A stretch of 64,000 nucleotides of DNA from an uncultured Eubacteriales bacterium (GCA_902793245.1 CADBCX010000008.1:155-64154), one strand, 5' to 3'; numbered from the stretch's first letter, positions 6,708 to 24,209 are shown. Numbers and translations are program-made. The notes: generated by a model from the sequence alone, not told the origin.

Positions 6708-6721
6708 TAATCCTTCTCAAA

Positions 6722-6835: not shown

Positions 6836-6843
6836 TTAACCTA

Positions 6844-8408: not shown

Positions 8409-8464
8409 ACTCTCCCTGCCTTACGCAATCAACAAAGAACCATTTCAAAAGGGGCTGCTGAAAA

Positions 8465-11431
8465 ATGAACCGTCTTGCCGGGATCGTCCTGCTGATACTC
8501 TGCCTGACAGGGGCGTGCTGCGCCTGCGCGGAAAGCGCGGGAGGCGACTGGGCGGATATGTACGCCCTGTCCGTGGAGAACGCCATCGAGTACGGCGACC
8601 TGCGGGAGGAATGGGCCAAGGAGCCTGACGTGTACAAGCCCGCTCCCCAGGGCGCGGAAATCGTTCTGCTGCCAAAGGACGCGGCGCTGTCCGGCGACAT
8701 CGCCTTGGAATCCGGCTTTGAAGCCTATCCCGGCCTGTATTCCAATGAAAACGAAACCCCGGAAAGCGTGCTGGTGTCCGGTGATAACGAGTGCGCCGCC
8801 GCCTGGAAGATCACTGTGGAGCAGCCCGGCCTGTATGAACTGAAGGTGTCCTACCTGGCCCTGGGCGGCAACGAAATCAAGGTGCAGCGGAAAATCACCA
8901 TCGACGGGGAAACGCCCTACGAGGAAGCCAACAACCTGTGCTTCTACCGGGTATTCGAGGAAGAAATTCAGCCCGACGGCAAAATGCGCCTGAACGCCAT
9001 CAACGACGAGGTCTGGCCCCACATGATCGAAAAGCGCGTGTGGCAGACCGTCCGGGCGGTGGATCAGCAGGCGATTTACGTGGACCCGCTGCAATTCTAT
9101 CTCTCCGCGGGCGAACACGAAATCGTATTGGAATATGTGGATCAGCCCGTGGTGCTGGGGAATATCGCCTTCGTTTCTCCCATCGTTTATCCAACCTATA
9201 AAGAAAAATTGGCGGAATGGCAGGCCGCGGGATACAAGAACGTATCCGACGATACCGTGATCAAATTGCAGGCGGAAAACAGCGCCTGGCGCAGCGAGAA
9301 CGTCATCCGCCGCGAGTCCGACGCCGACCCGCTGACCGAGCCCAAGTCCGGGGCCAACCGGGTGCTGAACATCGTGGGCGGCTACCGCTGGCGCCTGGGC
9401 AACGCGGCGGTGAGCTGGGACATCGACGTGCCAGAAAGCGGGCTGTACGCTCTTCACTTTAAAGTATTGCAGACCACCGACCCCGGCATGCCCTCCTACC
9501 GGCAGATCATGATCGACGGGGAAATCCCCTTTGACGAAATGCGGCTGTACGCCTTCCCCTACGACAGCCACTGGTACGGCGAAACCTTCCGGGACGGCGA
9601 CGGCAATCCCTATTGCTTCTATCTGGAAAAGGGTGTCCATACCCTGACCGCCACCGTGAAGCTGGGGCCCATCGGCGAGATCATGCGCCGCACGGAAAAG
9701 GACACCACCTACCTGGGCCGGGTGCAGCGGGAGATCGTGAAGATCACCGGCACCGAACCGGACTACAACTACGAATACGATCTGTACCGCACCATGCCGG
9801 AGCTGAGCGGGCAGCTGACCTATCTGGCCGGGCGGCTCCAGGAAAGCGCCGACCTGCTTTCCTCCATCTCCAACGAGACCACCTCCATGGAGAACAACTT
9901 CCGCCAGATCATCGACCAGCTTCACTTCTTCTCCGAGGACGTGGACCGGATTCCCAAGGCGTTAAGCGACCTGGACAACGCCCAGACCAACCTGGGCACC
10001 TACATTTCCACCATCGAAAAATGCCCCATGGCCATGGACTACCTGATGCTGTCCTCCCCGGATGTGAGCATGGACATCGCCACCTCCAACTTCCTCCAGC
10101 GCATGGCGGTGACGGGTGAAAACTTCCTGGCCTCGTTTACGAAGGACTATGACAGCGTGGGCCTGATCGTGGACGACAGCAGCGCGCAGGAAACCACCGT
10201 GCTGAACGTGTGGATCGCCCGGGGCACCGAGTGGGGCGAAATTCTGAAAGAGCTGGCTGACGAGGAGTTCACACCCAAGACCGGCATCGTCATCAACCTG
10301 CACGTGCTGCCCACGGGCCAGCTTTCCACCGGCTCCGTGAACACCATCATGCTTTCCGTGGCCAGCGGCACCGCGCCGGACGTGGCGCTTTCCGTGGAAT
10401 ACAACCTGCCCAACGAGTTCGCTTTCCGCGGCGCGGTGTGCGACCTGAGCCAGTTCCCCGGCTTTGAGGACGTCACGAAGAATTTCTATCCCAGCAGCCT
10501 GGTGCCCTTCCAATACAACGGCGGGGTGTACGCGCTGCCGGAGACCATGGACTTTACCTGCATGATCTACCGCCGGGACGTGCTGGCCGAGCTGGGCGTG
10601 GAGCTGCCGGAGACCTGGGAGGATCTGTACCAGAAGGTGCTGCCCCGGCTTTACGAAAACAACATGAGCTTCTCCCTGCCGGTGGATACGTCGGTCTCCA
10701 GCAATTCCCCCGGCGCACTGCGGGGCTTCACCATGCTGCTGCTGCAAACGGGCGGGGATTACTACCATGATAACGGCGCTTCCTCCGCCCTGGACACCCC
10801 CGAAGCCTACAAGGCGTTCAAGGCCTGGACGGACATGTACGCCAACTACGAAATTGACGCGGAAAGCAATTTCTTTACCCGCATCCGCACCGGCACCATG
10901 CCCGTGGGCATCGGCAACTTCACCACCTACATGCAGCTGATGACCTCGGCTCCCGAACTGTACGGACGGTGGAGCATTGCCCCCGTCCCCGGCACGCGTC
11001 AGGCGGACGGCACGGTGAAGCACACCGTCGGCACCACCGCGGCGACGGCGGATATTATTCTTTCCCAGAGCGAAAAGAAAGACGCGGCCTGGGAGTTCCT
11101 CAAATGGTGGAGCAGCGAGGAAACCCAGACCCGATATGGCCGCGAGCTGGAAGCCATTTTAGGCATGGGCGCGCGCTGGAACACCGCCAACGTGAACGCT
11201 TTCTATTCCCTGCCCTGGGACGCCCGGCACGAGCGCGTCATCCGCGCCCAGATGGACGCCGCGGAGGAACAGCTCATCGTCCCCGGCGGCTACTTCACCG
11301 GGCGGCACATCATCAACGCCTGGAACCGGGTGTGCATCAACAACGAAAACGCCCGCGACGCCCTGGAAAAGGCGGTCAAGGACATTAACAAAGAGCTTCA
11401 CAATAAGCGGGTGGAGTTTGGATTAGAGTGA
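8465..11431 (+). CDS. giant (988 aa) extracellular solute-binding protein: two CBM-like beta-sandwich repeats + helical linker + family-1 SBP domain
   Basis: Signal peptide with a Cys-rich end (LCLTGACCACA). Internal duplication (GLYELKVSYLAL...ITIDGETPYEE versus GLYALHFKVLQT...IMIDGEIPFDE). The C-terminal ~420 aa look like a CUT1 sugar SBP. Confidence 0.75.
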   Translation: MNRLAGIVLLILCLTGACCACAESAGGDWADMYALSVENAIEYGDLREEWAKEPDVYKPAPQGAEIVLLPKDAALSGDIALESGFEAYPGLYSNENETPESVLVSGDNECAAAWKITVEQPGLYELKVSYLALGGNEIKVQRKITIDGETPYEEANNLCFYRVFEEEIQPDGKMRLNAINDEVWPHMIEKRVWQTVRAVDQQAIYVDPLQFYLSAGEHEIVLEYVDQPVVLGNIAFVSPIVYPTYKEKLAEWQAAGYKNVSDDTVIKLQAENSAWRSENVIRRESDADPLTEPKSGANRVLNIVGGYRWRLGNAAVSWDIDVPESGLYALHFKVLQTTDPGMPSYRQIMIDGEIPFDEMRLYAFPYDSHWYGETFRDGDGNPYCFYLEKGVHTLTATVKLGPIGEIMRRTEKDTTYLGRVQREIVKITGTEPDYNYEYDLYRTMPELSGQLTYLAGRLQESADLLSSISNETTSMENNFRQIIDQLHFFSEDVDRIPKALSDLDNAQTNLGTYISTIEKCPMAMDYLMLSSPDVSMDIATSNFLQRMAVTGENFLASFTKDYDSVGLIVDDSSAQETTVLNVWIARGTEWGEILKELADEEFTPKTGIVINLHVLPTGQLSTGSVNTIMLSVASGTAPDVALSVEYNLPNEFAFRGAVCDLSQFPGFEDVTKNFYPSSLVPFQYNGGVYALPETMDFTCMIYRRDVLAELGVELPETWEDLYQKVLPRLYENNMSFSLPVDTSVSSNSPGALRGFTMLLLQTGGDYYHDNGASSALDTPEAYKAFKAWTDMYANYEIDAESNFFTRIRTGTMPVGIGNFTTYMQLMTSAPELYGRWSIAPVPGTRQADGTVKHTVGTTAATADIILSQSEKKDAAWEFLKWWSSEETQTRYGRELEAILGMGARWNTANVNAFYSLPWDARHERVIRAQMDAAEEQLIVPGGYFTGRHIINAWNRVCINNENARDALEKAVKDINKELHNKRVEFGLE

Positions 11432-11434
11432 GGA

Positions 11435-12355
11435 GTGATCGCCTTGCAGGCAGCGGTAAAGAAAAGCGGCTTCAGGGAATGGCTGCGGAAGAACGGCACG
11501 GGATACGCTTTCCTGCTGCCCTTCCTGATCCTGTTCGCGGTGTTTGTGATCGTGCCGGTCGCGGTGGCGATGTATTACAGCCTGACCAACTACAACATGA
11601 TCCAGCCCGCCCGGTTTGTGGGGCTAAGCAATTATTCCCAGCTGATCCTGGACGACGACGTGTTCCTGATTTCCCTCAAGAACACGATGGTTTTCGCCGT
11701 CATCACCGGGCCGATTGGGTACTTTGCCTCCTTCCTCATGGCCTGGCTGATTACGCTGGTGAAGAAGGGCAGGGGCTTTTTCTCCCTCATGTTCTACGCG
11801 CCCTCGCTGACCAGCGGCGTGGCCATGGCGAACATCTGGCTCATCCTCTTTTCCGGCGACCGGTACGGCTACATCAATAACCTGCTGCTGCGCTCCGGGC
11901 TGATTCTGGAGCCGATCCTCTGGACGAAGGACGCCACCTACGTGCTGCCCGTGGTCATGATTATTTCCATCTGGATGAGCATGGGCACCGGCTTCCTGGT
12001 GTTCCTGGCGGGCCTGCAAAATGTTGACCCCGCCATGTACGAGGCCGCCCGGGTGGACGGCATCAAGAACAAGTTCCAGGAGCTTCGGTTCATCACCCTG
12101 CCCATGATGAAGCCGCAAATGCTGTTCGGGGCCATCAACGCCATCGTGGGCGCCTTCGGCGTGTTTGACGTGGCCACCGCCGTGGCGGGCCTGCCCAGCC
12201 CCAACTACGCCGCCCATACCATCGTGGCGCACCTGTACGACTACGCCTTCACCCGCTTCAATATGGGCTACGCCAGCGCGGTGGCCATGGCGCTGTTCGT
12301 GATTACGTTCACCCTGGGCCGCATTTGCATGCATGTATTTAAGGACAACACCTGA
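11435..12355 (+). CDS. carbohydrate ABC transporter permease (MalF-like)
   Basis: Six-TM pattern and the EAA-type loop AARVDGIKNKFQELRFITLPMMKP. GTG start, exact start uncertain. Confidence 0.85.
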   Translation: MIALQAAVKKSGFREWLRKNGTGYAFLLPFLILFAVFVIVPVAVAMYYSLTNYNMIQPARFVGLSNYSQLILDDDVFLISLKNTMVFAVITGPIGYFASFLMAWLITLVKKGRGFFSLMFYAPSLTSGVAMANIWLILFSGDRYGYINNLLLRSGLILEPILWTKDATYVLPVVMIISIWMSMGTGFLVFLAGLQNVDPAMYEAARVDGIKNKFQELRFITLPMMKPQMLFGAINAIVGAFGVFDVATAVAGLPSPNYAAHTIVAHLYDYAFTRFNMGYASAVAMALFVITFTLGRICMHVFKDNT

Positions 12356-12374
12356 CGGAAGGAGGCGGAAAAAC

Positions 12375-13265
12375 GTGACTGCAAAAGCTGTGTACAGGCC
12401 CCGTCGGTTCAAGTTCCGATTAAAAAAGCTCACCTTTTCCCGTTTCATGCTCTATCTGCTTCTGACCGCGCTGGTGATGATCGCGGGCCTGCCGCTGTTC
12501 GCCATGGTGTGCCGCAGCCTCATGCCGCTGGACGAGTTGTACATTTACCCGCCCCGGCTCATCGTGCATAAGCCGACGCTGCGCAATTTCAGCGACCTGC
12601 TCACCTCCCTTTCCTCCTCCACGGTGCCCTTCACGCGCTACATTTTCAACTCCCTGTTCACCACCGTGGTGACGGTGCTGGCCAGCGTGATCGTGTGCTG
12701 CATGGGCGCTTACGGCCTGGTGAAGCACAAGCCCGCGGGCAGCGGCCCCATTTTCGCGGTGGTGCTGGCAGCGCTGATGTTCTCCGCCCACGTGACGCAG
12801 ATCCCCAACTATATGGTGGTGAACAAGCTGCGGCTGGTAAACACCTATTGGGCGCTGATCATCCCCAAAATCGCGGTGGCGTACAACTTCTTCCTGGTGA
12901 AGCAGTTCTGCGAACAGCTGCCCGACTCCATCCTGGAGGCGGCCCGCATCGACGGGGCCAAGGAGTTCCGGGTGTTCTGGACCATCGCCATGCCGCTTTT
13001 GCAGCCCGCCTGGACGACCCTGGCGGTATTCAGCTTCGTCAATAACTGGAACGACTATTTCTCTCCCCTGATTTTTATTTCCAGCAACGCCCTGAAAACC
13101 CTGCCCCTGGCCCTGCAAACCCTGTCCGGCGGCGCGGGCGTGGTGGCGAGGGCCGGCACCGTGGGCGCGGCCACGTTCCTGACCACCGTGCCTTCCATCC
13201 TGGTGTTCGCCATCATGCGCGGCAAGGTCATGGAAACCATGTCCTTCTCGGGCATCAAGTCGTAA
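12375..13265 (+). CDS. carbohydrate ABC transporter permease (MalG-like)
   Basis: EAA loop EAARIDGAKEFRVFWTIAMPLLQP. GTG at 12375 is preceded by GGAAGGAGG. Confidence 0.85.
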   Translation: MTAKAVYRPRRFKFRLKKLTFSRFMLYLLLTALVMIAGLPLFAMVCRSLMPLDELYIYPPRLIVHKPTLRNFSDLLTSLSSSTVPFTRYIFNSLFTTVVTVLASVIVCCMGAYGLVKHKPAGSGPIFAVVLAALMFSAHVTQIPNYMVVNKLRLVNTYWALIIPKIAVAYNFFLVKQFCEQLPDSILEAARIDGAKEFRVFWTIAMPLLQPAWTTLAVFSFVNNWNDYFSPLIFISSNALKTLPLALQTLSGGAGVVARAGTVGAATFLTTVPSILVFAIMRGKVMETMSFSGIKS

Positions 13266-13278
13266 GGGGGGAAGGAAG

Positions 13279-14730
13279 ATGAAAAAAGCGTTCATTCTTT
13301 CCCTGGCGCTGCTGCTTCTGTGGCTGCCAACCGCCCGGGCCGTGGTGGGCATGGACGCCTTCGTGGTGGACACCGACACCACCGACGGCGGCGACAATTA
13401 CATTCCCATCCCCGCGGCTTATGAAGTATACGGTACCATCAAGAACCTGGGCGAAAACGGCTTCATGAACCACCCGGAGGATATTTTCGTCGCCCCGGAC
13501 GACACCCTGTACGTGGCCGACGGCGAAAACAACCGGGTGCTGCAAATGACCCGGGAGGGCCGGGTGCTGAATATCATCACCGAAGCCTGCGGAAAAAAGC
13601 TGAACAAGCCCCGGGGCGTGTATGTGCACACCGACGGCAGCGTGTGGATCGCCGACACCGGCAACCTGCGCATCGCCACGCTGAACGCCGACGGCAGCGA
13701 CCGCAAGGAGTACATAAAGCCCGAGTCCTCCCTGCTGGGCGCGAACTTCACCTTCGACGTCCAGAAAATTTTCGTGGCGAATACCGGCTACATCTACGCC
13801 CTCAAGGGCGCGAACCTGATCGCCCTGGACGAAGCGAACAATTTCCGCGGCTACCTGGGCGCCGACAAGGTAGGCTTTTCCCTGAGCCGCTTCCTGGTGC
13901 GCCTGTTCGGCAGCAAGAGCCAGATCGAGCGCACCGTGAAGCAGGAGCCCGCCAGCTATTCCAACTTCTTCATCGGCGCGGACAACATGATCTACGGCAT
14001 CCTGTCCAACAAAAAGACCGCGCAGATTCGCAAGCTCAACTCCGTGGGCACCAACACCTATCCCGAAGAGACCTACGGCTTCATCCTGCCCGACCCCTCG
14101 CTGGGGGCCAACGGCAAGGTGCTGGAGCCTACCTTCTCCGACATTACCGTGGAGGACAACGGCATCATCACGGTGGTGGACCGCATCACCGGGCTGATTT
14201 ACCAGTATGACCAGGACGGCAACCTGCTGTGCTGCTTCGGCGGCACGGGTGACACGGAGGGCCTGTTCCAGATTCCCATCAGCATCGAGGCGGACAGCGA
14301 GGGCTACCTCTACGTGCTGGATTACCAGTCCAACACCATTACCGTGTTCCGGCCCACCCACTTCATCACCCTGGTGCACCAGGCGGTCACGCTCCACGGC
14401 GAAGGCCGCTACCAGGAGGCCCTGGGTTACTGGAAGCAGGCGCTGGAAATCGACAGCAACTATGCCCTGGCCCATCAGGGCGTGGCAAAGATCATGGGCA
14501 AGCAGGAGGATTGGGGCAGCGCCCTGCGCTCCTACGAATTGGCCAACGACCGGGAGGGTTACTCCGAAGCCTTCGCCGAATACCGCCACGAATATTTCCG
14601 GCAGCACTTCCTGCTGGTGGTGGCGTGTACGGTGGCGATTGTGTTCATCACGGTAAAGCTCTTGTCCCTGGCGAAGAAAAAGGCTGACCAGTGGGCCGAC
14701 GACGTGCAGATGGGGAGGGGATTGAAATGA
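13279..14730 (+). CDS. signal-peptide protein with NHL-type beta-propeller repeats, a TPR segment and a C-terminal TM anchor
   Basis: Repeats of the type YVADGENNRVLQM, WIADTGNLRIATL, YVLDYQSNTITVF. TPR-like YQEALGYWKQALEIDSNYALAH. TM segment LLVVACTVAIVFITVKLL. Confidence 0.65.
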   Translation: MKKAFILSLALLLLWLPTARAVVGMDAFVVDTDTTDGGDNYIPIPAAYEVYGTIKNLGENGFMNHPEDIFVAPDDTLYVADGENNRVLQMTREGRVLNIITEACGKKLNKPRGVYVHTDGSVWIADTGNLRIATLNADGSDRKEYIKPESSLLGANFTFDVQKIFVANTGYIYALKGANLIALDEANNFRGYLGADKVGFSLSRFLVRLFGSKSQIERTVKQEPASYSNFFIGADNMIYGILSNKKTAQIRKLNSVGTNTYPEETYGFILPDPSLGANGKVLEPTFSDITVEDNGIITVVDRITGLIYQYDQDGNLLCCFGGTGDTEGLFQIPISIEADSEGYLYVLDYQSNTITVFRPTHFITLVHQAVTLHGEGRYQEALGYWKQALEIDSNYALAHQGVAKIMGKQEDWGSALRSYELANDREGYSEAFAEYRHEYFRQHFLLVVACTVAIVFITVKLLSLAKKKADQWADDVQMGRGLK

Positions 14731-15359
14731 CGGGCTTCAAGCTGTGCGTCATGATGCTGTTCCATCCCATCGTGGTGAGCGAATACATCAAGAAGCAGCG
14801 CGGCGACGCGGGGTTCAAGCGCATGAGCGCCGTCCTGGTGGCGGTGCTGCTGGCCCTGGCGCTGGGCGTGAGCGTGTTCTCCATTTATTTCACGCATTAT
14901 CCCCTGTCCACCGTGTCGGTGCGCAAGGCCAACCTGCTGCTGGAATGCGGCAAGCTGTTCGTGCCGGTGCTGACGTGGATCCTGGCCTCCTACGCCATGA
15001 CCACCATCTTGGACGGCGCGACCAAGATCGGCGAGGCGATGATCTACAACACCCTGTCGCTGATGCCCTACGTGCTGTTCACGGTGCCGGTGGTGCTGCT
15101 CTCCCGCGTCATGGACGGCGGCCAGGCCGGGCTGTATTACACCCTGACCGGCGGGCAGATCGCCTGGGTGATCCTGCTGATGATCGTGGGCCTCAAGGAA
15201 ATGAACGAATACAGCGTGAAAAAGACCGTGCTGGTGGTGCTGCTGACGGTGTTCACCATGGCGGTCATCTGGGCCACCATCGTGCTGCTGTTCACCATCT
15301 CCTCCCAGTTCGTCACCATGATCCGGGAAGTGTACTTTGAAATTGTATACAGGATATAA
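14727..15359 (+). CDS. Yip1-domain integral membrane protein
   Basis: About 5 TM segments. N-terminal LFHPIVVSEYIKKQRG resembles bacterial YIP1-family starts. ATGA start/stop overlap with the upstream gene. Confidence 0.6.
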   Translation: MTGFKLCVMMLFHPIVVSEYIKKQRGDAGFKRMSAVLVAVLLALALGVSVFSIYFTHYPLSTVSVRKANLLLECGKLFVPVLTWILASYAMTTILDGATKIGEAMIYNTLSLMPYVLFTVPVVLLSRVMDGGQAGLYYTLTGGQIAWVILLMIVGLKEMNEYSVKKTVLVVLLTVFTMAVIWATIVLLFTISSQFVTMIREVYFEIVYRI

Positions 15360-15366
15360 AGGAAGG

Positions 15367-15477
15367 AGAGTACAGAGTTCAGAGTGCAGAGTACAGATGA
15401 GTCAGTAAGCGCTTTCAGAATCCTGTATGGACAGACAAAATAAATCTGTACTCTGAACTCTGTACTCTGTACACTCT
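15367..15477 (+). repeat. heptad-array hairpin repeat, copy 2
   Basis: Left arm AGAGTACAGAGTTCAGAGTGCAGAGTACAGA and right arm TCTGTACTCTGAACTCTGTACTCTGTACACTCT around a 47-nt loop. Confidence 0.85.
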
Positions 15478-15530
15478 TTCAAACCGAGCGACTGAATATA
15501 TACCTGCATTGTTAGAACGGAGGGCACAGC

Positions 15531-17657
15531 ATGAAAAAAACCGGTATTCTGTTTTTCCTGCTGATTGCGGCGCTTGCCATCGTGCCCGCTTGGGCGGAAG
15601 AAACAAGCCCGGAGCGTATCCCCGTGGCGGAGAATGACCGGCTGGCGCTGTACCTGGACCCCGGCCTTTGCTCCATTGACATTGAGGACAAGCTGACGGG
15701 CCGGACCTGGTCCTCCACCATGAACGATGAAACCGCCGAAGGCATGAAAATCATCCCCGCCCAGAAAAAGAAAGTGACCAGCCTGCTGGCTGTCAACTGC
15801 ACCAATTTGCAGACCGGCCTGGGCGTGGTGAACAACCTGGCGCTGATGGCGGAAAAAGACCTGAAAGCCTCCTATGAACTGATCGAAAACGGCGTGCGGC
15901 TGACCTATTATCTGGGCACCTACCAGGTGGGCGTCAGCGCGGAAATCACCCTGGACGGGGCCAGCCTGGTGGCCCGGGTGCCTTACGAAAGCATCCGGGA
16001 GGACGGGGACTTTTCCCTGGTCAGCGTGGACATGCTGCCCTTCCTCTTTTCCGCCACCGACAAGGCCGAGGGCTTTTTCCTCTATCCCGACGGCTGCGGC
16101 GCGGTGATGGAGTTTCAGGACAACGCCCATTATAAGGAATCCACCCGGCTCTATCCCGTCTACGGCGATTACCAGAAGCAGGCCACGCTGCTGGACATGT
16201 TCGCCCAGGAAGCGCCGGTGGTCATGATGCCGGTGTTCGCCATGAACCGGGGCGGGCACAGCCTGATGGCGATCATTGAGGAGGGCGCGGAATCCAGCCG
16301 CATTTCCCTGAACTGCTCCAACAACATCATCGGCATCAACTACCTGTTCGCCAACTTCCAGTACCGCCGCGCGTTCAGCGATAAGCGCGTCACCGACCGC
16401 GACATCCGCGTGTACGACAAGGACGATATCAAAACCGACTACCAGCTGCGGGTGCTGTTCCTGGAAGAGGAAAACGCCGATTACAGCGCCATGGCCCGAG
16501 TCTGGCGGGATTATCTGCTGGAGAGGGGCATCGTATCCCGCGGCGAACGCAGGCCCACCGTCGCCATCGACCTGTTTATGAGCGCGCCGGAGGAAGGCCT
16601 GCTGTTCGACACGCCGCGCACCGTGACCACCCTTTCCCAGGCGGAAGAAATCCTGGAATCCCTGGACAGCCTGGGCGTCAAAAACATCCGGGCGTCGGTG
16701 AAGGGCTGGACGGCGGGCAGCTACGGCAAGACCCCTGACCATTTCCCCATCGCCCGCTCCGTAGGCGACAGGGATGCGCTGGTGCATCTGATTGAGACCG
16801 TCCACCGGCTGGGCGGCACCCTGTCCCTCACCGCCAATTTCATGGAAGCCCAGGCCGACGAACGGGGCTACTCCCACCGCAACGACGTGGTGTACACCGG
16901 CAACCACACCGTCCTGACGGACAAGGAAGAAACCGTGTTCATGCTCAGCCCCGACGTGAGCAAGGAAAAGTTTGACCGGTTCCGGAAGGACGCTTCCTCC
17001 TATCCCCTGGACGGCGTGCGCTTCGAGCGGATGGGCCAGTACGTGGGCTTCAATTACGGCGCCCGCCGCTACACCACCGCCGCGGAAGCGCTGGCGCTGT
17101 ACCGGGCTATGCTGGACGAAAGCAAAGCGGCTTTCGGCAGCGCGGAGGCCGAGGGTGGCAACGCCTGCCTGCTGGGCGCGGCGGACTTCTTCACGAATGT
17201 TCCGTATAAGGACTACGGCTGCCAGGCCACCACCCGCGCCGTGCCCTTCTATCAGGTGGCGCTGCATGGGCTGGTGGATTACGCGGGACGGCCCGGCAAC
17301 CTGAGCAGCGATCTGGAACGGGAGGTGCTGCGCTGGGTGGAGATGGGCTACACGCCCTTCTTCGAGCTGACCCACGGCAACACCGAGGAATTGATGTACA
17401 CGAATTATCAAATTCTCTTTTCCGCCGAGTACACCGCCTGGCAGGAGCGGGTGGCCTGGGCCGCGAAGCAGTTCACCGAAGGCCCCCTGGCGGAGCTGGC
17501 CGGCGTGTGCATCGCCGAGCATGAGCGCCTCAGCGACACCCTGGCGAAAGTCACCTATGAAAACGGCGCCGTCGTCTATGTGAATTACGCCGATGAAGCC
17601 GTCCAGGCCGACGGCGTAGATATCCCCGCGCAGAGCTGGAAAGCGGTGCATGAGTGA
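15531..17657 (+). CDS. 708-aa secreted protein of unknown function (possibly glycoside-hydrolase-like; DUF5696-type by context, unverified)
   Basis: Signal peptide LLIAALAIVPAWA. Long ORF with good coding character. I recognise no catalytic motif. Confidence 0.6.
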   Translation: MKKTGILFFLLIAALAIVPAWAEETSPERIPVAENDRLALYLDPGLCSIDIEDKLTGRTWSSTMNDETAEGMKIIPAQKKKVTSLLAVNCTNLQTGLGVVNNLALMAEKDLKASYELIENGVRLTYYLGTYQVGVSAEITLDGASLVARVPYESIREDGDFSLVSVDMLPFLFSATDKAEGFFLYPDGCGAVMEFQDNAHYKESTRLYPVYGDYQKQATLLDMFAQEAPVVMMPVFAMNRGGHSLMAIIEEGAESSRISLNCSNNIIGINYLFANFQYRRAFSDKRVTDRDIRVYDKDDIKTDYQLRVLFLEEENADYSAMARVWRDYLLERGIVSRGERRPTVAIDLFMSAPEEGLLFDTPRTVTTLSQAEEILESLDSLGVKNIRASVKGWTAGSYGKTPDHFPIARSVGDRDALVHLIETVHRLGGTLSLTANFMEAQADERGYSHRNDVVYTGNHTVLTDKEETVFMLSPDVSKEKFDRFRKDASSYPLDGVRFERMGQYVGFNYGARRYTTAAEALALYRAMLDESKAAFGSAEAEGGNACLLGAADFFTNVPYKDYGCQATTRAVPFYQVALHGLVDYAGRPGNLSSDLEREVLRWVEMGYTPFFELTHGNTEELMYTNYQILFSAEYTAWQERVAWAAKQFTEGPLAELAGVCIAEHERLSDTLAKVTYENGAVVYVNYADEAVQADGVDIPAQSWKAVHE

Positions 17658-17669
17658 GGAGGTGTCCCC

Positions 17670-18569
17670 GTGTCTGTGAAAAATGCTGCGGCAGCCCGCA
17701 GGCCCAAGCGCCTGGGCATTGACCGGCGGCGGTCGCTGGAAGCGTATATCTTCCTGATCCCCTGGCTGATCGGCGTGTGTCTGTTTTTCGCCTATCCCAT
17801 CTTTGTGTCCGTGCGCCTGGCCTTTTCGGACATCGTGGAGTTCAAGGGGCTGAAAACCTCCTGGGTGGGACTGGAAAACTTCCGGTACATCTTCTTTTAC
17901 GACATCAACTTTGTCCCCACGTTTTTGAAGGTGGTCACGGACACCCTGCTCAACACCCCGCTGTGCATGGTGTTTTCGCTGATTATCGCCATCTTCATCA
18001 ACCGCAAAATGGTGGGCCGCGGGTTCTTCCGCACGGCGTTCTTTATTCCCGTGCTGCTGGGTACCGGCTACATCATGAAGCAGCTGCTGGGCATGGGCGT
18101 GGACGGCATGACCGTGACCACCGGCATCCTGGTGCCCAAGCTCATCGCCGACCTGCTGGGCCCCAGCATCACCGAAGTGGTGCAGGGCTTCCTGGACAGG
18201 ATCACCGTGGTGCTGTGGAAAAGCGGCGTGCAGATCGTGCTGTTCCTGGCGGGATTGCAGGGCATCTCCGGCTCGCTCTACGAAGCCGCCCGCGTGGACG
18301 GGGCCACGGAATGGGAAATGTTCTGGAAAATCACCCTGCCCATGATTTCCCCGGTCATCATGATGAACGTGGTGTACACCATCGTGGCCTTCTTCACCGA
18401 CACCACCAACCCCCTGGTGGACTACATCTACAAGATGAACTTCACCAATCAGCAGTTTGAGTACGCCGCCGCCATGAGCTGGCTGTACTTCATCTTCGCC
18501 CTGGTGTTGTGCCTGGCCAGCATCCTCTTTATGCGGAAACATATCTATGATTCGGGAGCGAAAGGGTAA
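17670..18569 (+). CDS. carbohydrate ABC transporter permease
   Basis: EAA loop EAARVDGATEWEMFWKITLPMISP. GTG at 17670 follows GAGGAGG. Confidence 0.85.
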   Translation: MSVKNAAAARRPKRLGIDRRRSLEAYIFLIPWLIGVCLFFAYPIFVSVRLAFSDIVEFKGLKTSWVGLENFRYIFFYDINFVPTFLKVVTDTLLNTPLCMVFSLIIAIFINRKMVGRGFFRTAFFIPVLLGTGYIMKQLLGMGVDGMTVTTGILVPKLIADLLGPSITEVVQGFLDRITVVLWKSGVQIVLFLAGLQGISGSLYEAARVDGATEWEMFWKITLPMISPVIMMNVVYTIVAFFTDTTNPLVDYIYKMNFTNQQFEYAAAMSWLYFIFALVLCLASILFMRKHIYDSGAKG

Positions 18570-18585
18570 GAAAGGAGCGTTTTCC

Positions 18586-19530
18586 ATGTCAACGGCGGCG
18601 ATTAAGCGCAATGGCAGAAAGAGCAAGGCGGCGCGGTTCGCAAAGACGTTCACGCTGCGGCTGGCGTTTTATTTCCTGCTCTGCGCGCTGAGCTTTATCT
18701 TCCTCTACCCCTTTATCACGATGATCGTCAAGTCCCTCATGACCGACGACGACCTGGTGAACATCACGGTGAAATGGCTGCCCAGCGAGCTGACCTGGAA
18801 CAACTATGCCATCGCCTACCGCCGCATGGGGTTCAGCCGCTACATCTGGAACAACGTGCTGGTCGGCGCGGTGGCGACCATCGGACATATGTTCTCCTGC
18901 GCCTTGACGGGATACGCCTTCGCGCGGTATAATTTCAAATTGAAGAATGTATTGTTCGTCATCGTCATCCTGATGATGATCGTGCCTGTGCAGGTCATCA
19001 TCTTCCCGCTTTACAAGCAGTATTCGGACTGGAAGTGGCTCAACACCTTCCTGCCCCTGCTGGTGCCCTGTTTCTTCGGCTTCGGCCTGAACGGCGGCTT
19101 CTTCATTTTCCTGTTCCGCCAGTTCTTTATGGGCCTGCCCTACGAAATGGAGGAGGCCGCCCGGGTGGACGGCTGCGGCCCCATCCGCACATATGCCCGC
19201 ATCATGCTGCCCATGGCCCAGGCCCCGATGCTGGTGTGCGGCGTGCTTTCGCTGGTGTGGCACTGGAACGACTACTTTGAGCCGGGCATTTATATCAACA
19301 CCAAGCCCGACCTGCGGATGCTGCCCAGCATCCTGCCTTCGCTGTATTCCCTGCTGAACCAGGAAAACCACACCATGATCCAGGTGAACGACCTGGAGGG
19401 CATCGTGTTCAACGAAGCCATGCTCATGGCCGCCACCTTCCTGTGCATCATCCCCATCATGATCGCCTACCTCTTCCTCCAGCGCAGATTCATGGAGGGC
19501 GTGGAGCGGTCTGGACTCACAGGAATGTAA
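18586..19530 (+). CDS. carbohydrate ABC transporter permease
   Basis: EAA loop EEAARVDGCGPIRTYARIMLPMAQ. ATG at 18586 follows AAAGGAG. Confidence 0.85.
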   Translation: MSTAAIKRNGRKSKAARFAKTFTLRLAFYFLLCALSFIFLYPFITMIVKSLMTDDDLVNITVKWLPSELTWNNYAIAYRRMGFSRYIWNNVLVGAVATIGHMFSCALTGYAFARYNFKLKNVLFVIVILMMIVPVQVIIFPLYKQYSDWKWLNTFLPLLVPCFFGFGLNGGFFIFLFRQFFMGLPYEMEEAARVDGCGPIRTYARIMLPMAQAPMLVCGVLSLVWHWNDYFEPGIYINTKPDLRMLPSILPSLYSLLNQENHTMIQVNDLEGIVFNEAMLMAATFLCIIPIMIAYLFLQRRFMEGVERSGLTGM

Positions 19531-19546
19531 TCTCTCGGTAAAAGAG

Positions 19547-19650
19547 GAGAGAACAGAGTTCAGAGTACAGATGAGTTAGCGTACGCGCTGCGGAACCCAT
19601 GCTTGATCGAGCCTATCCATCTGTACTCTGTACTCTGAACTCTGCACTCT
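19547..19650 (+). repeat. heptad-array hairpin repeat, copy 3
   Basis: Left arm GAGAGAACAGAGTTCAGAGTACAGA, 48-nt loop, right arm TCTGTACTCTGTACTCTGAACTCTGCACTCT. Confidence 0.85.
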
Positions 19651-19716
19651 ATTATCCATCGTTCCCTCGCGGCAGTGAAGCCGCAGGAGATATATTTTTC
19701 AAGGAGGTTTTCTCGT

Positions 19717-21348
19717 ATGAAGAAAATCGTGGCTCTCATGTTGGCTCTGGTCATGCTGCTGTGCATGTGCGGCGCGGCGCTTGCGGCCGACAAGGTGTCC
19801 TACACTCTGCTGCCCTTCTCCAACAGCGTGTATGAACCCTACATCTACGAAGGCCTGGTCGGTATGCTGAAAGTGCAGAAGATGGCTGACGTGGAAATCG
19901 AATGGCAGCCCATCCTGGGCTCCCGCGACGAACAGCCCGCCCTGTACCTGGCGATGCTGGCCAGCGGCAACTATCCCGACGTCATCCAGGCCCAGCACAA
20001 CAACATGTACGCGGGCGGCGTCAGCCAGCTGTTTGCCGATGGCATCATCATTGAGCTGAACGACGTGATCGACAAGTACATGCCCAACTACAAGGCTCTG
20101 CTGGAAGCCCATCCCGAAGTGGCGAAAACCCTCAAGGACGACCAGGGCCGCTACCTGTACTTCACCGTCATCAACCCCGGCTCCACCCCCGATGAGCGCG
20201 TGGCCTTCACCTGGTACGGCCTCCAGGGCCGCAAGGACTGGATGGAGAACGTCGGCATCGAAGAAATGCCCACCACCATCGACGGCTGGTACGAGATGCT
20301 GGTTGCCTTCCGCGACCTGGATCCCAACGGCAACGGCGAACAGGATGAAATCCCCTTCGACGGCGGCGCGTCCGGCTACACCTACTTCATGCCCGCTTAC
20401 GACATCCTGAACGGCGCTTACATCAATCCCGAAACCGGCAAGGTCGGCATCGGCGAATACACCCAGAACTACAAAGCGTTCCTGGAAACCATGAGCAAGT
20501 GGTACGCCGAGGGCCTGGTGAAGGACATCTGGAAGGATGACGGCACCACCGCCGGCGACGAAGAAAAGGACGCCAACATCTACGCTGACCTGGCCGGCTC
20601 CTGGAAGGGCCTGAGCAACTATTGGGAGCAGCGCCTGCCCCAGGTTCTGGAAAAGAACCCCAACGCCGACTTCATCGCCTTCCCCTGGATCGTGGATGCC
20701 AACGGCGTTGCCTACGGCACGGACTATAACTTCTCCTACGGCGACCGCTTCACCACCGTCATCACCGTGGACTGCAAGAACGTGGAAGCCGCTGCCCGCC
20801 TGATCGACACCATGTTCACCGAAGAAGGCACCAACTGCACCACCTGGGGCATTGAGCAGGGCGACGACATCCTGACCATCCCCGAAACGGCATGGTGCCA
20901 GGGCAACGGTACCTACACCGTGGACGAAAACGGCGTGAAGCACGAGACCGAATGGGCCAACCAGATGACCGAAAACTTCTACGACGGCGCGTTCGCCAAC
21001 AAGTACCGCTACGCCATGAGCCACGTGTCCTTCCCCCGCTGGGGCGCCGGTGATTACCTGGCCGCTACCCGCGAGCCCAACTACGTGGCCTCCGCCAAGC
21101 TGTGGGGCGAAGCCTCCAACGCCCTCGAATATCCCGCCGCTATCGTGCTGAGCGTGGACGCCCAGAAGGCCGCCGCGCCCCAGCTGGATGAAATCAACGC
21201 TTACATCAACGACATGACCAAGAAGTTCATCACCGGCGAAGAACCCCTGACCAACTTCGACGGCTACATGGATCAGCTGCAGAAGATGGGCATCGAAGAC
21301 CTCATCGCCGCCTATCAGGCTGCCTATGACCAGTTCATGGCGCGGTAA
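19717..21348 (+). CDS. large (543 aa) extracellular sugar-binding lipoprotein (LplA-like family-1 SBP)
   Basis: Lipobox-like LMLALVMLLCMCG. ATG at 19717 follows CAAGGAGG. Size and composition are typical of oligosaccharide SBPs. Confidence 0.8.
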   Translation: MKKIVALMLALVMLLCMCGAALAADKVSYTLLPFSNSVYEPYIYEGLVGMLKVQKMADVEIEWQPILGSRDEQPALYLAMLASGNYPDVIQAQHNNMYAGGVSQLFADGIIIELNDVIDKYMPNYKALLEAHPEVAKTLKDDQGRYLYFTVINPGSTPDERVAFTWYGLQGRKDWMENVGIEEMPTTIDGWYEMLVAFRDLDPNGNGEQDEIPFDGGASGYTYFMPAYDILNGAYINPETGKVGIGEYTQNYKAFLETMSKWYAEGLVKDIWKDDGTTAGDEEKDANIYADLAGSWKGLSNYWEQRLPQVLEKNPNADFIAFPWIVDANGVAYGTDYNFSYGDRFTTVITVDCKNVEAAARLIDTMFTEEGTNCTTWGIEQGDDILTIPETAWCQGNGTYTVDENGVKHETEWANQMTENFYDGAFANKYRYAMSHVSFPRWGAGDYLAATREPNYVASAKLWGEASNALEYPAAIVLSVDAQKAAAPQLDEINAYINDMTKKFITGEEPLTNFDGYMDQLQKMGIEDLIAAYQAAYDQFMAR

Positions 21349-21429
21349 TGGTCAGGCAATAGGCATTAGGGAATAGGCATTAGATAATAGATTGACTATC
21401 CCAACGAATGCCTAATGACTGAATCCCAG

Positions 21430-21466
21430 CCGGGGCTGTCGGCGCATACCGGCAGCCCCGGTTTTT
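21430..21466 (+). terminator. intrinsic terminator after the SBP gene
   Basis: CCGGGGCTGTCGG-loop-CCGGCAGCCCCGG followed by TTTTT. Confidence 0.7.
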
Positions 21467-21541
21467 CCGAGTGTATAGGAAATTCCGTCCCAGCGGCGGC
21501 ATTTCCTATGCCCTTGAAAATACAGTTTGGAGGAATACATC

Positions 21542-22186
21542 ATGACCATCTACATCTGCGGCGATTCCACCGCGGCCAGCTACAAACCCGAGGAAGCGCC
21601 GATCACCGGCTGGGGGCAGGTGCTTTCGGAATACCTGCCCAGCGTGCGGGTAGAGAACCGCGCCATGGGCGGGCGCAGCACCAAGTCCTTTCTGAGCGAA
21701 GGGCGGCTGCAAAGGATCGAAACGGAGATTCAGCCCGGCGATCTGCTGCTGATTCAGTTCACCCATAACGACACCAGCGACCTGGTCTGGCGGCACACCG
21801 ACCCCTGGACGTCCTTTTATCAGAACCTGCAAATCTTCATCGACACCGCTATGCTGAACAGGGCGCGGCCTGTGCTGATGACGCCCATCTGCCGCCGCTA
21901 CTGGCGGGACGGAAAGCTGCTGGAAAGCCACGGGGAATATCCCGACGTGATCCGCGTGCTGGCGGCGCAAAGAAACGTGCCGCTGATCGACCTGTACGAA
22001 CAGAGCAAGGCTTATGTGCGGCAGTTAGGCGAGGAGGAAAGCAAAAAGCTGTATCTGTATGTGGCACCCGGCATCTATCCCGCCTATCCCAACGGCAACG
22101 CGGACGATACCCACACCCAGCGGAAAGGCGCGGAAACCTACGCCTGGATGACGGCGGAGGCGCTGAAAGGGATGGGGCTGGTTTGA
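21542..22186 (+). CDS. SGNH/GDSL hydrolase, rhamnogalacturonan acetylesterase-like (CE12)
   Basis: Block I IYICGDSTAASY, block III FTHNDTS, block V DDTHTQ. No signal peptide. Confidence 0.8.
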   Translation: MTIYICGDSTAASYKPEEAPITGWGQVLSEYLPSVRVENRAMGGRSTKSFLSEGRLQRIETEIQPGDLLLIQFTHNDTSDLVWRHTDPWTSFYQNLQIFIDTAMLNRARPVLMTPICRRYWRDGKLLESHGEYPDVIRVLAAQRNVPLIDLYEQSKAYVRQLGEEESKKLYLYVAPGIYPAYPNGNADDTHTQRKGAETYAWMTAEALKGMGLV

Positions 22187-22232
22187 ATTAATAGAACAGA
22201 CAGTCTGAGTTCGTAATCATAAAGAAATCCGA

Positions 22233-22438
22233 CCAAAAGCCTTCCCCTTGAGGGGAAGGTGGGCCGCGCGGAGTCAAGAATGAGAGAGTGAACAAGTTCA
22301 TTCGCGCGGCTCGGATGAGGTGGCCCCGTCCCTGTTGCTTCTGGAAACACCTCATCCGTCAGGCGCGAATTTGCTCCGGTATATTGAGCCAACTTGGTTT
22401 CGCGCCTGACACCTTCCCCTCAAGGGGAAGGCTTTTGG
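22233..22438. repeat. composite palindromic element, copy A (29-bp terminal inverted repeats + three internal hairpins)
   Basis: Left end CCAAAAGCCTTCCCCTTGAGGGGAAGGTG and its reverse complement at the right end. Internal stems CCGCGCG/CGCGCGG, GGATGAGGTG/CACCTCATCC and GTCAGGCGCGAA/TTCGCGCCTGAC. Confidence 0.85.
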
Positions 22439-22508
22439 GTAGTTTTATGAACCTACATCTCTGTATTCTAAGAAAGACTCCTCACACAAAGAAAAGGGGG
22501 ACAAGCAT

Positions 22509-24209
22509 ATGTACATCGTAGCGAAGGACGGCTCCGGGGATTTCACTTCCATTCAGCAGGCCATCGACGCCATTCCGGCGGGGGGCCGGACGCCCACCAT
22601 CCTGCTGATTCGCATGAACGAATACCAGGAGCGCGTGGTGGTGGACAAGGACAACGTGCGCATCATCGGCGAGGCGCGGGACAGGACAGTTATCACCGCC
22701 AAGGGCTGCGCCCTGGACAAGGACGAAAACGGCAACGACCGCGGCACCTTCCTGTCCGCCACCTTCATCGTGATGGGCAACAACGTGGAAGTGGAAAACC
22801 TGACCATCCGCAACGACGCGGGGGACGGCCGCGATGTGGGCCAGGCCGTGGCGGTGTACGCGGCGGGCGACCGGGGCGTGTGGCGCAACGTGCGCATGAT
22901 CGCCCATCAGGATACTTTGTTCTGCGGGCCGCTGATGCAGAAGGTCATCAACTTCTACGGCGGGCGCAGGGGCCGCGCCGAAGTGGTGGAATTCGTGGGC
23001 GACTGCCCGCCCACCCAGAGCCGCCAATACTTTGAGGACTGCTTCATCCAGGGGGACGTGGACTTTATCTTCGGCCCCTACCGCTGCTGGTTTGAGCGCT
23101 GCACCCTGTTCATGAACAAGCGGGGCGGCATGTACACCGCCGCCAACACGCCGGAAATTCAGCCCTACGGCCTGGTGTTCCACCAGTGCAGGCTGACCGG
23201 CGAATGCGAGGAAGGCCAGGGCTTCCTGGGCCGCCCCTGGCGCAGGTTCAGCCGCACCGTGTTCCTGGACTGCGACATGGACGAGCATGTGGCCCCCCAG
23301 GGCTTCGCGGACTGGGACGACATCAAGGTGGTCACGGAGCGCTACGCCGAGTATGGCACCACCGGCGTCCGGGCCGACCAGAGCCCCCGCCACCCCAGCC
23401 AGAAACGCATGAACGCCGAGGAAGCGGCCTGCTATACCATTCCCGACGTGATCGGCGGCCCCGACGGCTGGCGGCCCGACAGGCGCACGCCCACCTGGTT
23501 CCTCTGCGGCGATTCCACCATGGCGAACTATCCCGATGCCGTATATCCCATGATGGGCTGGGGCCAGAAGCTGCAAAGCCTGCTGCCGGAGAATGTCTTC
23601 GTGGAAAACTGCGCGGTGAACGGCAGGAGCAGCAAGAGCTTCATCGCCGAAAAGCGCCTGAACTTCATTGAGCTGTGCCTGCGGAAGGGCGACAAGCTGA
23701 TCGTCTCCTTCTCCCACAACGACGAAAAGCCCGACGCCGAACGCTCCACCAATCCCCGCGTCACCTACCCGGAATACCTGGGCATGTACATCGACGCGGC
23801 CCGGCGGCAAGGCGCGGAACCCATCCTCGTCACGCCCATTCCCCGGCGGCTGTTCAGCGACGACGGCAAGCTCGTTCCCACCCACGGCCCGTATCCCGAC
23901 GCCATGCGGGACCTGGCGGCATACCGCGGCGTGCGGCTCGTTGACCTGGAAAAAGCCGCCGCGCAGCTGTTCAGCAAGCTGGGCGCGGAAGGCACCAAAC
24001 GCATCTTCTGCCACGTGCCCGCGGGCAGCAAGAACTATCCCGACGGCTTGCAGGATAACAGCCATCTCCGGGAGGAAGGCGCGGTGCGGATCGCCATGCT
24101 GTTCCTGAACCGGCTGCAGTCGCCTGACCAGCCGGAAGCGGATCTGGAGAAGGCGGAAGCCGCCGATTTTTCCGGTCTGGTGGCCGCGGAGGACAGCGTG
24201 CTATGCTGA
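22509..24209 (+). CDS. bifunctional pectin methylesterase (CE8) / SGNH acetylesterase (CE12) fusion, cytoplasmic
   Basis: CE8 motifs GQAVAV, HQDTL, DVDFIFG, LGRPW. C-terminal half has FLCGDSTMANY, SHNDEKP, DNSHL. No signal peptide. Confidence 0.85.
   Translation: MYIVAKDGSGDFTSIQQAIDAIPAGGRTPTILLIRMNEYQERVVVDKDNVRIIGEARDRTVITAKGCALDKDENGNDRGTFLSATFIVMGNNVEVENLTIRNDAGDGRDVGQAVAVYAAGDRGVWRNVRMIAHQDTLFCGPLMQKVINFYGGRRGRAEVVEFVGDCPPTQSRQYFEDCFIQGDVDFIFGPYRCWFERCTLFMNKRGGMYTAANTPEIQPYGLVFHQCRLTGECEEGQGFLGRPWRRFSRTVFLDCDMDEHVAPQGFADWDDIKVVTERYAEYGTTGVRADQSPRHPSQKRMNAEEAACYTIPDVIGGPDGWRPDRRTPTWFLCGDSTMANYPDAVYPMMGWGQKLQSLLPENVFVENCAVNGRSSKSFIAEKRLNFIELCLRKGDKLIVSFSHNDEKPDAERSTNPRVTYPEYLGMYIDAARRQGAEPILVTPIPRRLFSDDGKLVPTHGPYPDAMRDLAAYRGVRLVDLEKAAAQLFSKLGAEGTKRIFCHVPAGSKNYPDGLQDNSHLREEGAVRIAMLFLNRLQSPDQPEADLEKAEAADFSGLVAAEDSVLC

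Follow-up and report, generated by a model that had tools for sequence, protein, structure and literature searches.

Three genes between two sugar importers are fixed parts of a nine-gene Bacillota cassette and may form an extracellular capture or processing module

What are three genes that encode neither a permease nor a solute-binding protein (SBP) doing between the permease genes of two sugar importers? The question is raised by a 64,000-nucleotide stretch of DNA from an uncultured Eubacteriales bacterium (GCA_902793245.1, CADBCX010000008.1:155-64154); "the window" in what follows means this whole stretch. At 13279-17657 a sequence-only reading had placed three genes on one strand, between the permeases of two ATP-binding cassette (ABC) importers that have no ATPase gene: a protein with NHL and TPR repeats (NHL-TPR), a Yip1-like membrane protein and a 708-residue secreted protein with no assignable motif. 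All three open reading frames (ORFs) are there, on the + strand. Our answer is that they are fixed parts of one conserved nine-gene cassette and not an insertion between two importers. We further lean, with somewhat better than even confidence, towards the view that they are the core non-transporter subunits of this roughly nine-gene Bacillota cassette for the uptake of complex glycans, making up an extracellular capture or processing module coupled to both importers. What the data show is the set of genes, their domains and folds, their strict synteny, a gene fusion and the membrane topology; the module is proposed on that footing.

The 708-residue protein belongs to the Pfam family DUF5696 (PF18952), and an alignment of it was used to scan a GTDB set with one genome per species, in which ORFs were called and iterated hidden Markov models were built from the window proteins. 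In this way 76 loci were recovered through DUF5696, all of them in rumen and gut metagenome-assembled genomes (MAGs) of Clostridia, among which are Christensenellales, Lachnospiraceae, Oscillospiraceae, Acetatifactor and Avimonas. The order giant SBP, two permeases, NHL-TPR, Yip1, DUF5696, two permeases, second SBP is seen in practically all loci whose flanks are long enough. Counted as loci with the feature over loci with enough flank, NHL-TPR and Yip1 lie directly 5' of DUF5696 in 62/62, with two permeases further 5' of NHL in 56/57 and the giant SBP upstream in 53/53; two permeases follow directly 3' of DUF5696 in 63/66, and a second SBP adjoins the cassette in 52/60. The identity of the DUF5696 proteins falls to about 25% across these loci, with the order unchanged.

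The same block is found in 9/9 additional contigs whose genes had been called independently and whose Pfam assignments were precomputed, among them Mahella australiensis CP002360, a Paenibacillaceae MAG, GCA_000526435 and a human-gut metagenome contig, from a common gut species, whose cassette protein is listed in 159 blocks of an assembly collection. Three of the nine were reached from a very divergent 898-residue DUF5696 protein and two from the NHL side. Since all related loci that were examined show this order, the three genes are fixed parts of the cassette, in an arrangement far beyond chance, and the cassette is spread over many Firmicutes of gut, rumen and soil. The suggestion that Yip1, DUF5696 and very large SBPs recur together in Firmicutes is thus borne out, and the co-occurrence of these families with sugar importers is conserved. 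The position of the three genes between two importers was also read correctly; their status as a separate insert does not survive, the whole nine-gene block being the conserved unit.

The architecture predicted for the first two proteins holds up well. NHL-TPR has an N-terminal hydrophobic signal (residues 5-23), a Pfam NHL match (PF01436; 52.8 bits, cut-off 20), a TPR_2 match at residues 367-394 that is slightly under the cut-off (25.2 bits, cut-off 27), and a single C-terminal transmembrane helix at 444-462 by hydropathy. The Yip1 protein of the window has five hydrophobic segments by hydropathy; its match to Yip1 (PF04893) scores 22.5 bits, below the cut-off of 28.6, yet spans model positions 3-172 of 173, and a Yip1 match is found in 22/22 aligned orthologues (best 5.1e-12). 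Its ATG at 14727 overlaps the NHL-TPR stop codon TGA at 14728-14730 in an ATGA, and a Shine-Dalgarno-like run, GGAGGGG, lies 8-14 nt 5' of this start. Other resources added little: a PDB sequence search with the Yip1 alignment gave no match, NCBIfam holds no model matching Yip1, DUF5696 or the second SBP, and it returned just sub-threshold NHL matches of the ScyF/ScyE type for NHL-TPR.

In 24 loci NHL-TPR and Yip1 are a single ORF of 680-740 residues. These natural fusions are colinear with the window pair at 33-38% identity, and alignment to them places the split point of the pair in a short cytoplasmic linker following the transmembrane helix. By this comparison, NHL-TPR is the N-terminal half and Yip1 the C-terminal half of one protein, which is split in the window. 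A fused homologue that is 38% identical (P0121) was modelled with AlphaFold2, giving a predicted local distance difference test score (pLDDT) of 86.4 and a predicted template-modelling score (pTM) of 0.75, with all parts in one chain: a six-bladed propeller at about 30-380 with a flexible insertion, TPR-like helix pairs at 381-462 that are compatible with about two to three TPR repeats, a long transmembrane helix at 464-497 and then the Yip1 helical bundle to 710, with five predicted helices after the anchor. Foldseek matches this model to generic NHL propellers (TRIM71, TRIM2, Brat and the "Pizza" designs), with template-modelling (TM) scores to the target of 0.76-0.81 for TRIM71, TRIM2 and Brat. 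Because these non-enzymatic domains rank first and Virginiamycin B lyase comes just 43rd, we see the modelled propeller as a binding or docking domain rather than an enzyme, with an enzymatic role as a lesser possibility. An assignment as lactonase, Vgb-type lyase or polysaccharide lyase (PL)-like enzyme was considered and not adopted; the SGL and Vgb_lyase matches are sub-threshold.

The DUF5696 protein is indeed secreted, having a cleavable signal peptide (AWA before the cleavage site, EE after it) and, by hydropathy, no further transmembrane segment or anchor. It does have an assignable family, which the sequence-only reading had named as a guess: residues 114-703 match PF18952 over model positions 3-612 of 612 (474.8 bits, cut-off 25.6). 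An exhaustive search of 1.84 billion cluster representatives, clustered at 50% identity, counted 4,251 clusters of DUF5696 with E<=1e-3, a number that drops to 1,783 with E<=1e-30; the best matches listed are almost all single-domain proteins of 700-900 residues. Its AlphaFold2 model (pLDDT 86.7, pTM 0.89) comprises an N-terminal beta-sandwich (30-310), a (beta/alpha)8 barrel (344-650) and a C-terminal beta-sandwich (660-706). The top Foldseek match is 5opq (DagB/ZgGH129, a 3,6-anhydro-D-galactosidase that resembles glycoside hydrolase (GH) family GH129; E 1.4e-34, TM-score 0.66-0.70), followed by NagBb 5wzn (E 1.7e-28), and the best 11 matches are all GH129 or GH129-like (E 1e-34 to 2e-26), with GH101, GH36, GH31 and GH97 further down.

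For profile-profile alignment, NagBb sequences were recovered from gut metagenome loci. HHalign then related DUF5696 to GH129 at 98.1% probability, E 7.6e-14 and 16% identity (the probability being 96-98% over runs), and the DUF5696 family profile found NagBb in a local hmmsearch match (E 3.4e-4 over 69 residues) through a GW...GY...PD...P motif. The motif, xLxGWxxxGYxxxxPDxxP, follows barrel strand 2 and is common to DUF5696 and the GH129 enzymes. The window protein has no GH129 Pfam match at E<=0.01. The sequence comparisons thus support superfamily homology to GH129 and do not extend to membership of the family; we conclude that DUF5696 is a remote member of the GH129 superfamily, related to GH129 through its fold and belonging to no characterised GH family. 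It is probably a glycosidase in most lineages.

The SBPs of the cassette are unusual as well. The upstream one ("SBPbig") has a signal peptide with cysteines and may be a lipoprotein. Its N-terminal 580 residues (8465-10200) contain two beta-sandwich repeats, at about 100-240 and 310-400, and a coiled-coil stalk at about 430-560. The repeats share the pattern W..V...GLY...Y....IDG..P(F/Y) and a weak similarity to Golvesin_C and GH115_C, which suggests that they resemble carbohydrate-binding modules (CBMs), and this CBM-like and coiled-coil region is kept in all of the approximately 1000-residue SBPs of the cassette. The closest PDB relatives of its SBP domain are Lin1841 (5ysb, 1.3e-24) and other oligosaccharide SBPs. 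The ORF of the second SBP opens with GTG at 19675 (about 557 residues), the likely true start being ATG at 19717 (543 residues), and its PDB matches are 5xs8 (Smon0123, 6.3e-24) and AlgQ1/2 (about 1e-19). With these SBPs go two CUT1-like permease pairs (UgpA/E-like, MalF/G-like) and no ATPase in the operon or nearby. In Bacillus subtilis, MsmX serves several ATPase-less pectin importers, as is usual for CUT1 systems of Firmicutes (PMC5730181), and by analogy we assume that both importers of the cassette are powered by a shared MsmX-type ATPase encoded elsewhere.

On the + strand the genes from 6.9 to 22.4 kb form one tight array (Table 1). The GH43 gene, which also lies just 5' of the cassette in the closest relatives of the window (L001, L002, L004-L006, L008, L011, L023), is the probable first gene of the transcription unit, and the GDSL/SGNH esterase gene is probably the last. 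The gaps are tiny, as had been described, save one that holds a structured repeat: 13 nt between permease and NHL-TPR, -4 nt between NHL-TPR and Yip1 and 12 nt between DUF5696 and permease, against 171 nt between Yip1 and DUF5696. A consensus scan finds a terminator-like site (6724-6741) and a promoter-like site (6844-6872) 5' of GH43 and then no convincing terminator on the + strand in 6741-22412, the next being a terminator-like hairpin at 22412-22431; a single transcript from GH43 to GDSL is plausible for this reason.

Table 1. Genes and repeats of the cassette and its immediate surroundings, in window coordinates.
Feature	Coordinates	Strand	Evidence
GH43 glycosidase with GH43_C2 domain	6945-8408	+	Pfam Glyco_hydro_43 9.5e-65
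Giant SBP "SBPbig", 988 aa	8465-11431	+	Signal peptide, SBP_bac_1 domain (588-888)
Permease 1a, UgpA/MalF-type CUT1 membrane domain	11435-12355	+	BPD_transp_1 2e-12; NCBIfam UgpA/GlcT-like
Permease 1b, UgpE/MalG-type	12333-13265	+	BPD_transp_1 1.5e-11; NCBIfam UgpE/GlcU-like
NHL-TPR membrane protein, 483 aa	13279-14730	+	NHL, TPR, signal peptide, one transmembrane helix
Yip1-domain protein with five transmembrane segments, 210 aa	14727-15359	+	Pfam Yip1 and hydropathy
Palindromic heptad repeat (CAGAGTN)n, 37-nt arms	15362-15480	.	Inverted repeat and RNA fold
Secreted DUF5696 protein, 708 aa	15531-17657	+	PF18952 5.6e-142
Permease 2a, UgpA/MalF-type	17670-18569	+	BPD_transp_1 1.4e-9; NCBIfam
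Permease 2b, UgpE/MalG-type	18547-19530	+	BPD_transp_1 2.1e-18; NCBIfam
Second copy of palindromic heptad repeat, within operon	19551-19651	.	Sequence repeat
Second large SBP	19675-21348	+	AlgQ / Smon0123 / FusA type; weak DUF3502 tail
GDSL/SGNH esterase	21527-22186	+	Lipase_GDSL_2 2.1e-13
Pectinesterase (CE8) and GDSL fusion	22509-24209	+	Context gene; same family 3' of cassette in relatives
GH88/GH105-type unsaturated uronyl hydrolase	24203-25309	+	Context gene; same family 3' of cassette in relatives

From the GH43 to the GDSL esterase gene (6945-22186) there is no gene for an ABC ATPase or a regulator, in agreement with the sequence-only reading, and neither an MsmX-like ATPase nor a membrane-associated AraC-type regulator was found on searching the window. 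The sole ABC ATPase gene near the locus (5904-6707) is part of an unrelated system directly upstream (3881-6707, + strand), composed of an ABC_sub_bind SBP, a BPD_transp_2 permease and an ABC_tran ATPase, with one hairpin repeat separating the SBP gene from the permease gene. A megablast comparison of the region with plasmids gave no match. Two long antisense ORFs, one of 1083 residues opposite DUF5696 and permease (15402-18653, - strand) and one of 450 residues opposite NHL-TPR (13255-14607, - strand), match no family; they are most likely artefacts that stem from the 60% GC content. Further downstream, at 28389-31316 on the + strand, a GH3 protein of 975 residues has its domains in permuted order: the GH3 C-terminal domain at 122-371, an Fn3-like domain at 463-535 and the GH3 N-terminal domain at 706-871.

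The inverted repeat of CAGAGTN heptads that fills the Yip1-DUF5696 gap folds as RNA at -59.9 kcal/mol (z -4.7). Copies of about 100-120 nt with arms of up to 37 nt occur at 4878-4964, 15362-15480 and 19551-19651, each between genes of an ABC operon, and Rfam has no family for these intergenic hairpins, nor for anything in 6700-22600. The repeat is missing from the Yip1-DUF5696 junction of L011, a 95%-identical relative whose gap measures 16 nt, and stands elsewhere in L001 and L008. Because it is absent from that junction and takes other positions in relatives, it is by this comparison a dispersed insertion, resembling a repetitive extragenic palindrome or a miniature inverted-repeat transposable element, and not a part of the cassette; a conserved attenuator was rejected on the same observations. 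It may influence relative mRNA levels.

What the cassette imports is best approached through its neighbours. In the window and its relatives these are GH43, carbohydrate esterase family CE8, GDSL and GH88/105 proteins, together with GH28, GH95, PL11 and BT_1020-like/BNR proteins, GH28, GH95, PL11 and BT_1020-like coming from related loci. By family, the neighbouring enzymes are predicted to act on homogalacturonan and on rhamnogalacturonans I and II (RG-I, RG-II), and the likely substrate of the cassette, in this lineage only (a rumen Clostridia / Christensenellales-like bacterium), is pectic oligosaccharides. Elsewhere mannosidases, sulfatases, rhamnosidases or a cellulase accompany the same cassette: GH38 and a GH63-like enzyme in Mahella, a sulfatase with its maturase in L160, two GH78 with GH39 and a sulfatase in L161, discoidin-domain proteins in L162, GH5 in L163 and GH2 in L164. 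As an identical cassette adjoins different enzymes in other lineages, we regard it as a generic uptake chassis whose specificity shifts by lineage. The earlier idea that the module feeds pectic or hemicellulosic oligosaccharides to the importers therefore fits the window lineage as regards its pectin context and does not carry over to lineages with GH38, sulfatases, GH78/GH39 or GH5; the capture or processing role that it included stays an inference.

Two further features of the neighbourhood vary between lineages. In an Avimonas/Ruminococcaceae clade (L054, L063-L065, L067-L069), tandem BNR_2/BT_1020-like beta-propellers and an aldolase of the dihydrodipicolinate synthase (DHDPS) family lie 3' of the cassette, which hints at a specialisation for RG-II (DHA/Kdo). 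Membrane-associated AraC-type regulators of 700-750 residues with a C-terminal HTH_18 domain are found beside it in no fewer than 29 loci, and also in L162, L164 and L165 (for example L057 450-2564(-), L164 1205-3448(-), L165 18105-19416(-) and L162 16502-18739). In the window and its nearest relatives the GH43 gene takes the regulator's place, and the 64 kb of the window contain no such regulator. Of the traits of a Gram-positive polysaccharide utilisation locus, the window thus has the transporter and the carbohydrate-active enzymes (CAZymes), and no regulator was found within it.

From this we infer co-transcription, a physical complex, an extracellular processing role and the substrate, and propose the following arrangement. 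NHL-TPR and Yip1 would act as a single membrane protein, with an extracytoplasmic six-bladed propeller and TPR on a six-helix base (one transmembrane helix plus five from Yip1), its halves being translationally coupled in the window and fused in other lineages. It would serve as a membrane scaffold that holds DUF5696, and possibly the SBPs, beside the two CUT1-type permease pairs: the NHL-TPR ectodomain would keep the unanchored DUF5696 protein at the membrane, and the permeases would be the partners of the Yip1 bundle. The giant SBP has two CBM-like domains and could capture polymer or long oligosaccharide, DUF5696 could trim the bound glycan or hand it over, and the products would enter through both importers with energy from the shared MsmX-type ATPase. 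A bolder version, which we hold tentatively and with well under even confidence, makes the cassette a Gram-positive counterpart of the Bacteroidota utilisome: a stable supercomplex of the cytoplasmic membrane in which NHL-TPR-Yip1 bridges two ABC translocons and docks the otherwise unanchored GH129-like protein and the CBM-bearing giant SBP, the GH129-like protein being an enzyme in most lineages and, in the window clade, a pseudo-enzyme receptor through an Asp-to-Asn change, so that capture, trimming and import of long glycans are physically coupled.

A number of observations weigh against a capture or processing module. The propeller shows no recognisable sugar-binding or catalytic site, its Foldseek matches being to the generic NHL fold only. 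The case for physical interaction comes down to gene order and the NHL-TPR::Yip1 fusion, and among the matches listed DUF5696 was never seen fused to a partner. Expression of Yip1 and DUF5696 could become uncoupled through the hairpin that separates them, and the substrate is read from neighbours alone, which vary between lineages. DUF5696 is perhaps not a hydrolase, as conservation is lacking at the positions that align with the catalytic pair of NagBb. The acid/base Glu478 of NagBb aligns to DUF5696 position 541, which is E in the window yet in just 37/131 representatives (28%) and 38/69 loci, with Q, S, T and D common. The nucleophile Asp435 (Asp486 of DagB) stands opposite N508 in one HHalign register and opposite Y504 in the other, neither being Asp in the window; the register around strand beta4 is unstable and of low confidence, so that any assignment of the nucleophile is provisional. 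Position 508 (nt ~17052-17054) is N or S in the window protein and in all 38 other members of its clade, at 33-95% identity.

Other residues point in more than one direction. Of 131 diverse DUF5696 representatives, 80% have D at position 508 and 15% have N; all fused-type loci and L157-L160, Mahella included, have D there. The nearest carboxylate is E499, which lines up with NagBb D430, and the residue at this place is acidic in 33/36 N508 sequences. No variation is seen at E604, N590, Y318, P186, G190, P572, G606 and P609, and conservation reaches 97-98% at R279 and H664 and 89% at each of D187 and D594. DagB, which has the same three-domain build as the DUF5696 model, has no residue equivalent to NagBb Glu478; of NagBb's catalytic pair it keeps just one member, and it draws on an Asp that the partner subunit supplies from its N-terminal domain, as reported by Ficko-Blean et al. 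(PMC5698469). Moving catalytic residues are therefore normal in the GH129 superfamily. In the window clade DUF5696 may, on these alignments, be active, rely on E499 or have turned into a binding protein.

The last of these possibilities amounts to an explanation of its own, that in the window clade DUF5696 is a non-catalytic glycan receptor with a GH129-like pocket, its nucleophile replaced by Asn, which delivers glycans to the SBPs or importers. The distribution of Asp and Asn/Ser at position 508 speaks for it, as do the register that aligns 508 with Asp435 and a motif comparison that does the same (AYLD-VF versus LYxD-YN), the strong conservation of the remainder of the protein, and the title of PDB entry 8rzk, according to which a D486N mutant of ZgGH129 served for the Michaelis complex. 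It is opposed by the second register, with Y504 at this place in a stretch of low confidence, by E499, which could take over, by the movement of catalytic residues known from DagB (PMC5698469) and by the conservation of D187, D594 and E604 (89-100%), and we consider it unlikely. A looser association of the three proteins, which seems to us rather unlikely, would make DUF5696 a secreted glycosidase of a new family distant from GH129 and NHL-TPR-Yip1 an assembly or stability factor like YknW, sharing an operon and no complex. The GH129-like fold and homology fit this, secreted GHs are encoded next to ABC genes in many Gram-positive polysaccharide utilisation loci, YknW shows that an ABC system can have a Yip1 accessory, and no DUF5696 fusion was found among the matches listed. 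However, the anchorless DUF5696 protein is never away from NHL-TPR/Yip1 (62/62 loci, 9/9 contigs) and its position between the permease pairs is invariant, whereas ordinary GH genes (GH43, GH28, GH95 and others) come and go among loci; nor is the canonical catalytic pair conserved in it.

NHL-TPR-Yip1 might also be a sensor, its propeller binding glycan and signalling within the membrane to the AraC-type regulator of about 700-750 residues. Extracytoplasmic NHL propellers are sensor domains in other proteins, such as PknD, and the regulators adjoin the cassette in many of the loci, as described above. Against this, NHL-TPR-Yip1 has no cytoplasmic output domain, its gene lies inside the structural operon between permease genes, and the window and its closest relatives keep NHL-TPR/Yip1 with no such regulator in the window's 64 kb, so that we think this explanation very improbable. 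The plainest alternative, that three unrelated genes were inserted by chance between two independent importers, can appeal to families with no known role in ABC transport and is refuted by synteny: with an identical order from Christensenellales to Lachnospiraceae, Oscillospiraceae, Mahella and Paenibacillaceae, we give it next to no credence. The capture or processing module coupled to two importers remains the explanation that we prefer.

The question matters beyond this locus. The Firmicutes of gut and rumen take up complex glycans mainly through ABC-importer loci, whose extracellular steps are less well understood than those of Sus systems. The cassette is large and rigidly conserved, its DUF5696 family has thousands of clusters, and its NHL-TPR-Yip1 protein, its DUF5696 protein and the N-terminal half of its giant SBP are components with no described function. 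Solving it would assign a role to a DUF that possibly founds a new GH family, would give the first nutrient-uptake function for a bacterial Yip1 domain, and might reveal how monoderm bacteria couple extracellular processing to import. With cultured hosts in Mahella australiensis and Cohnella, the question is directly testable.

Our literature search found no paper that mentions DUF5696/PF18952 or describes this gene set. As far as can be told, the cassette belongs to a known kind, the Gram-positive ABC-based glycan utilisation locus, with an undescribed fixed dual-importer architecture that includes NHL-TPR-Yip1, DUF5696 and a CBM-bearing giant SBP. Its DUF5696 protein is like the GH129 or GH129-like alpha-glycosidases NagBb of Bifidobacterium bifidum (5wzn) and DagB/ZgGH129 of Zobellia galactanivorans (5opq, 8rzk) in its three-domain build (Foldseek TM-score about 0.65-0.7). 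It differs from them in having only 14-16% identity and a Pfam family of its own, in the variable residue at the position of NagBb Glu478 and the Asn that is the best match to the nucleophile in the window protein, and in always lying within an ABC importer cassette, a setting that the GH129 enzymes lack.

The only bacterial precedent that we found for the Yip1 protein is YknW, which belongs to the Yip1 family and modulates assembly of the YknXYZ ABC transporter in Bacillus (PMC4887032). Both are polytopic membrane proteins encoded with an ABC transporter, but YknWXYZ is an exporter of the MacB type that includes a membrane-fusion protein, whereas the partners in the window are type I sugar importers, and YknW has nothing like the large extracytoplasmic NHL-TPR ectodomain that the Yip1 domain of the cassette bears or is coupled to. 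As to the transporters, the MsmX-dependent importers of B. subtilis (YesOPQ, YtcQP-YteP, AraNPQ) and LplABC-type systems share with the cassette a CUT1-type SBP with two permeases, the lack of an ATPase of their own and a pectin context (PMC5730181). These pectin systems are single importers with ordinary SBPs, in contrast to the dual importer of the window. To our knowledge, none of the MsmX-dependent systems of B. subtilis has NHL-TPR, Yip1, DUF5696 or a CBM-bearing SBP of about 1000 residues. AlgQ1/AlgQ2 and Smon0123, the best solved-structure matches of the second SBP (19717-21348; 6e-24 to 1e-19), bind uronate-containing oligo- or macromolecules; the likeness concerns this flanking SBP only, whose specificity is predicted.

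A further parallel lies in the Sus-like utilisomes of Bacteroidota, in which a SusC/D transporter, surface glycan-binding proteins and a surface glycosidase form a proven physical complex. There is no homology between the two, the utilisomes using the outer membrane and TonB where the cassette would use the cytoplasmic membrane and ABC transport, and for the cassette a complex is hypothesised. The analogy is one of function only: in both, genes for a transporter, for a lipoprotein that captures glycan and for a glycosidase-like protein outside the cell stand together, and the neighbouring CAZymes set the substrate.

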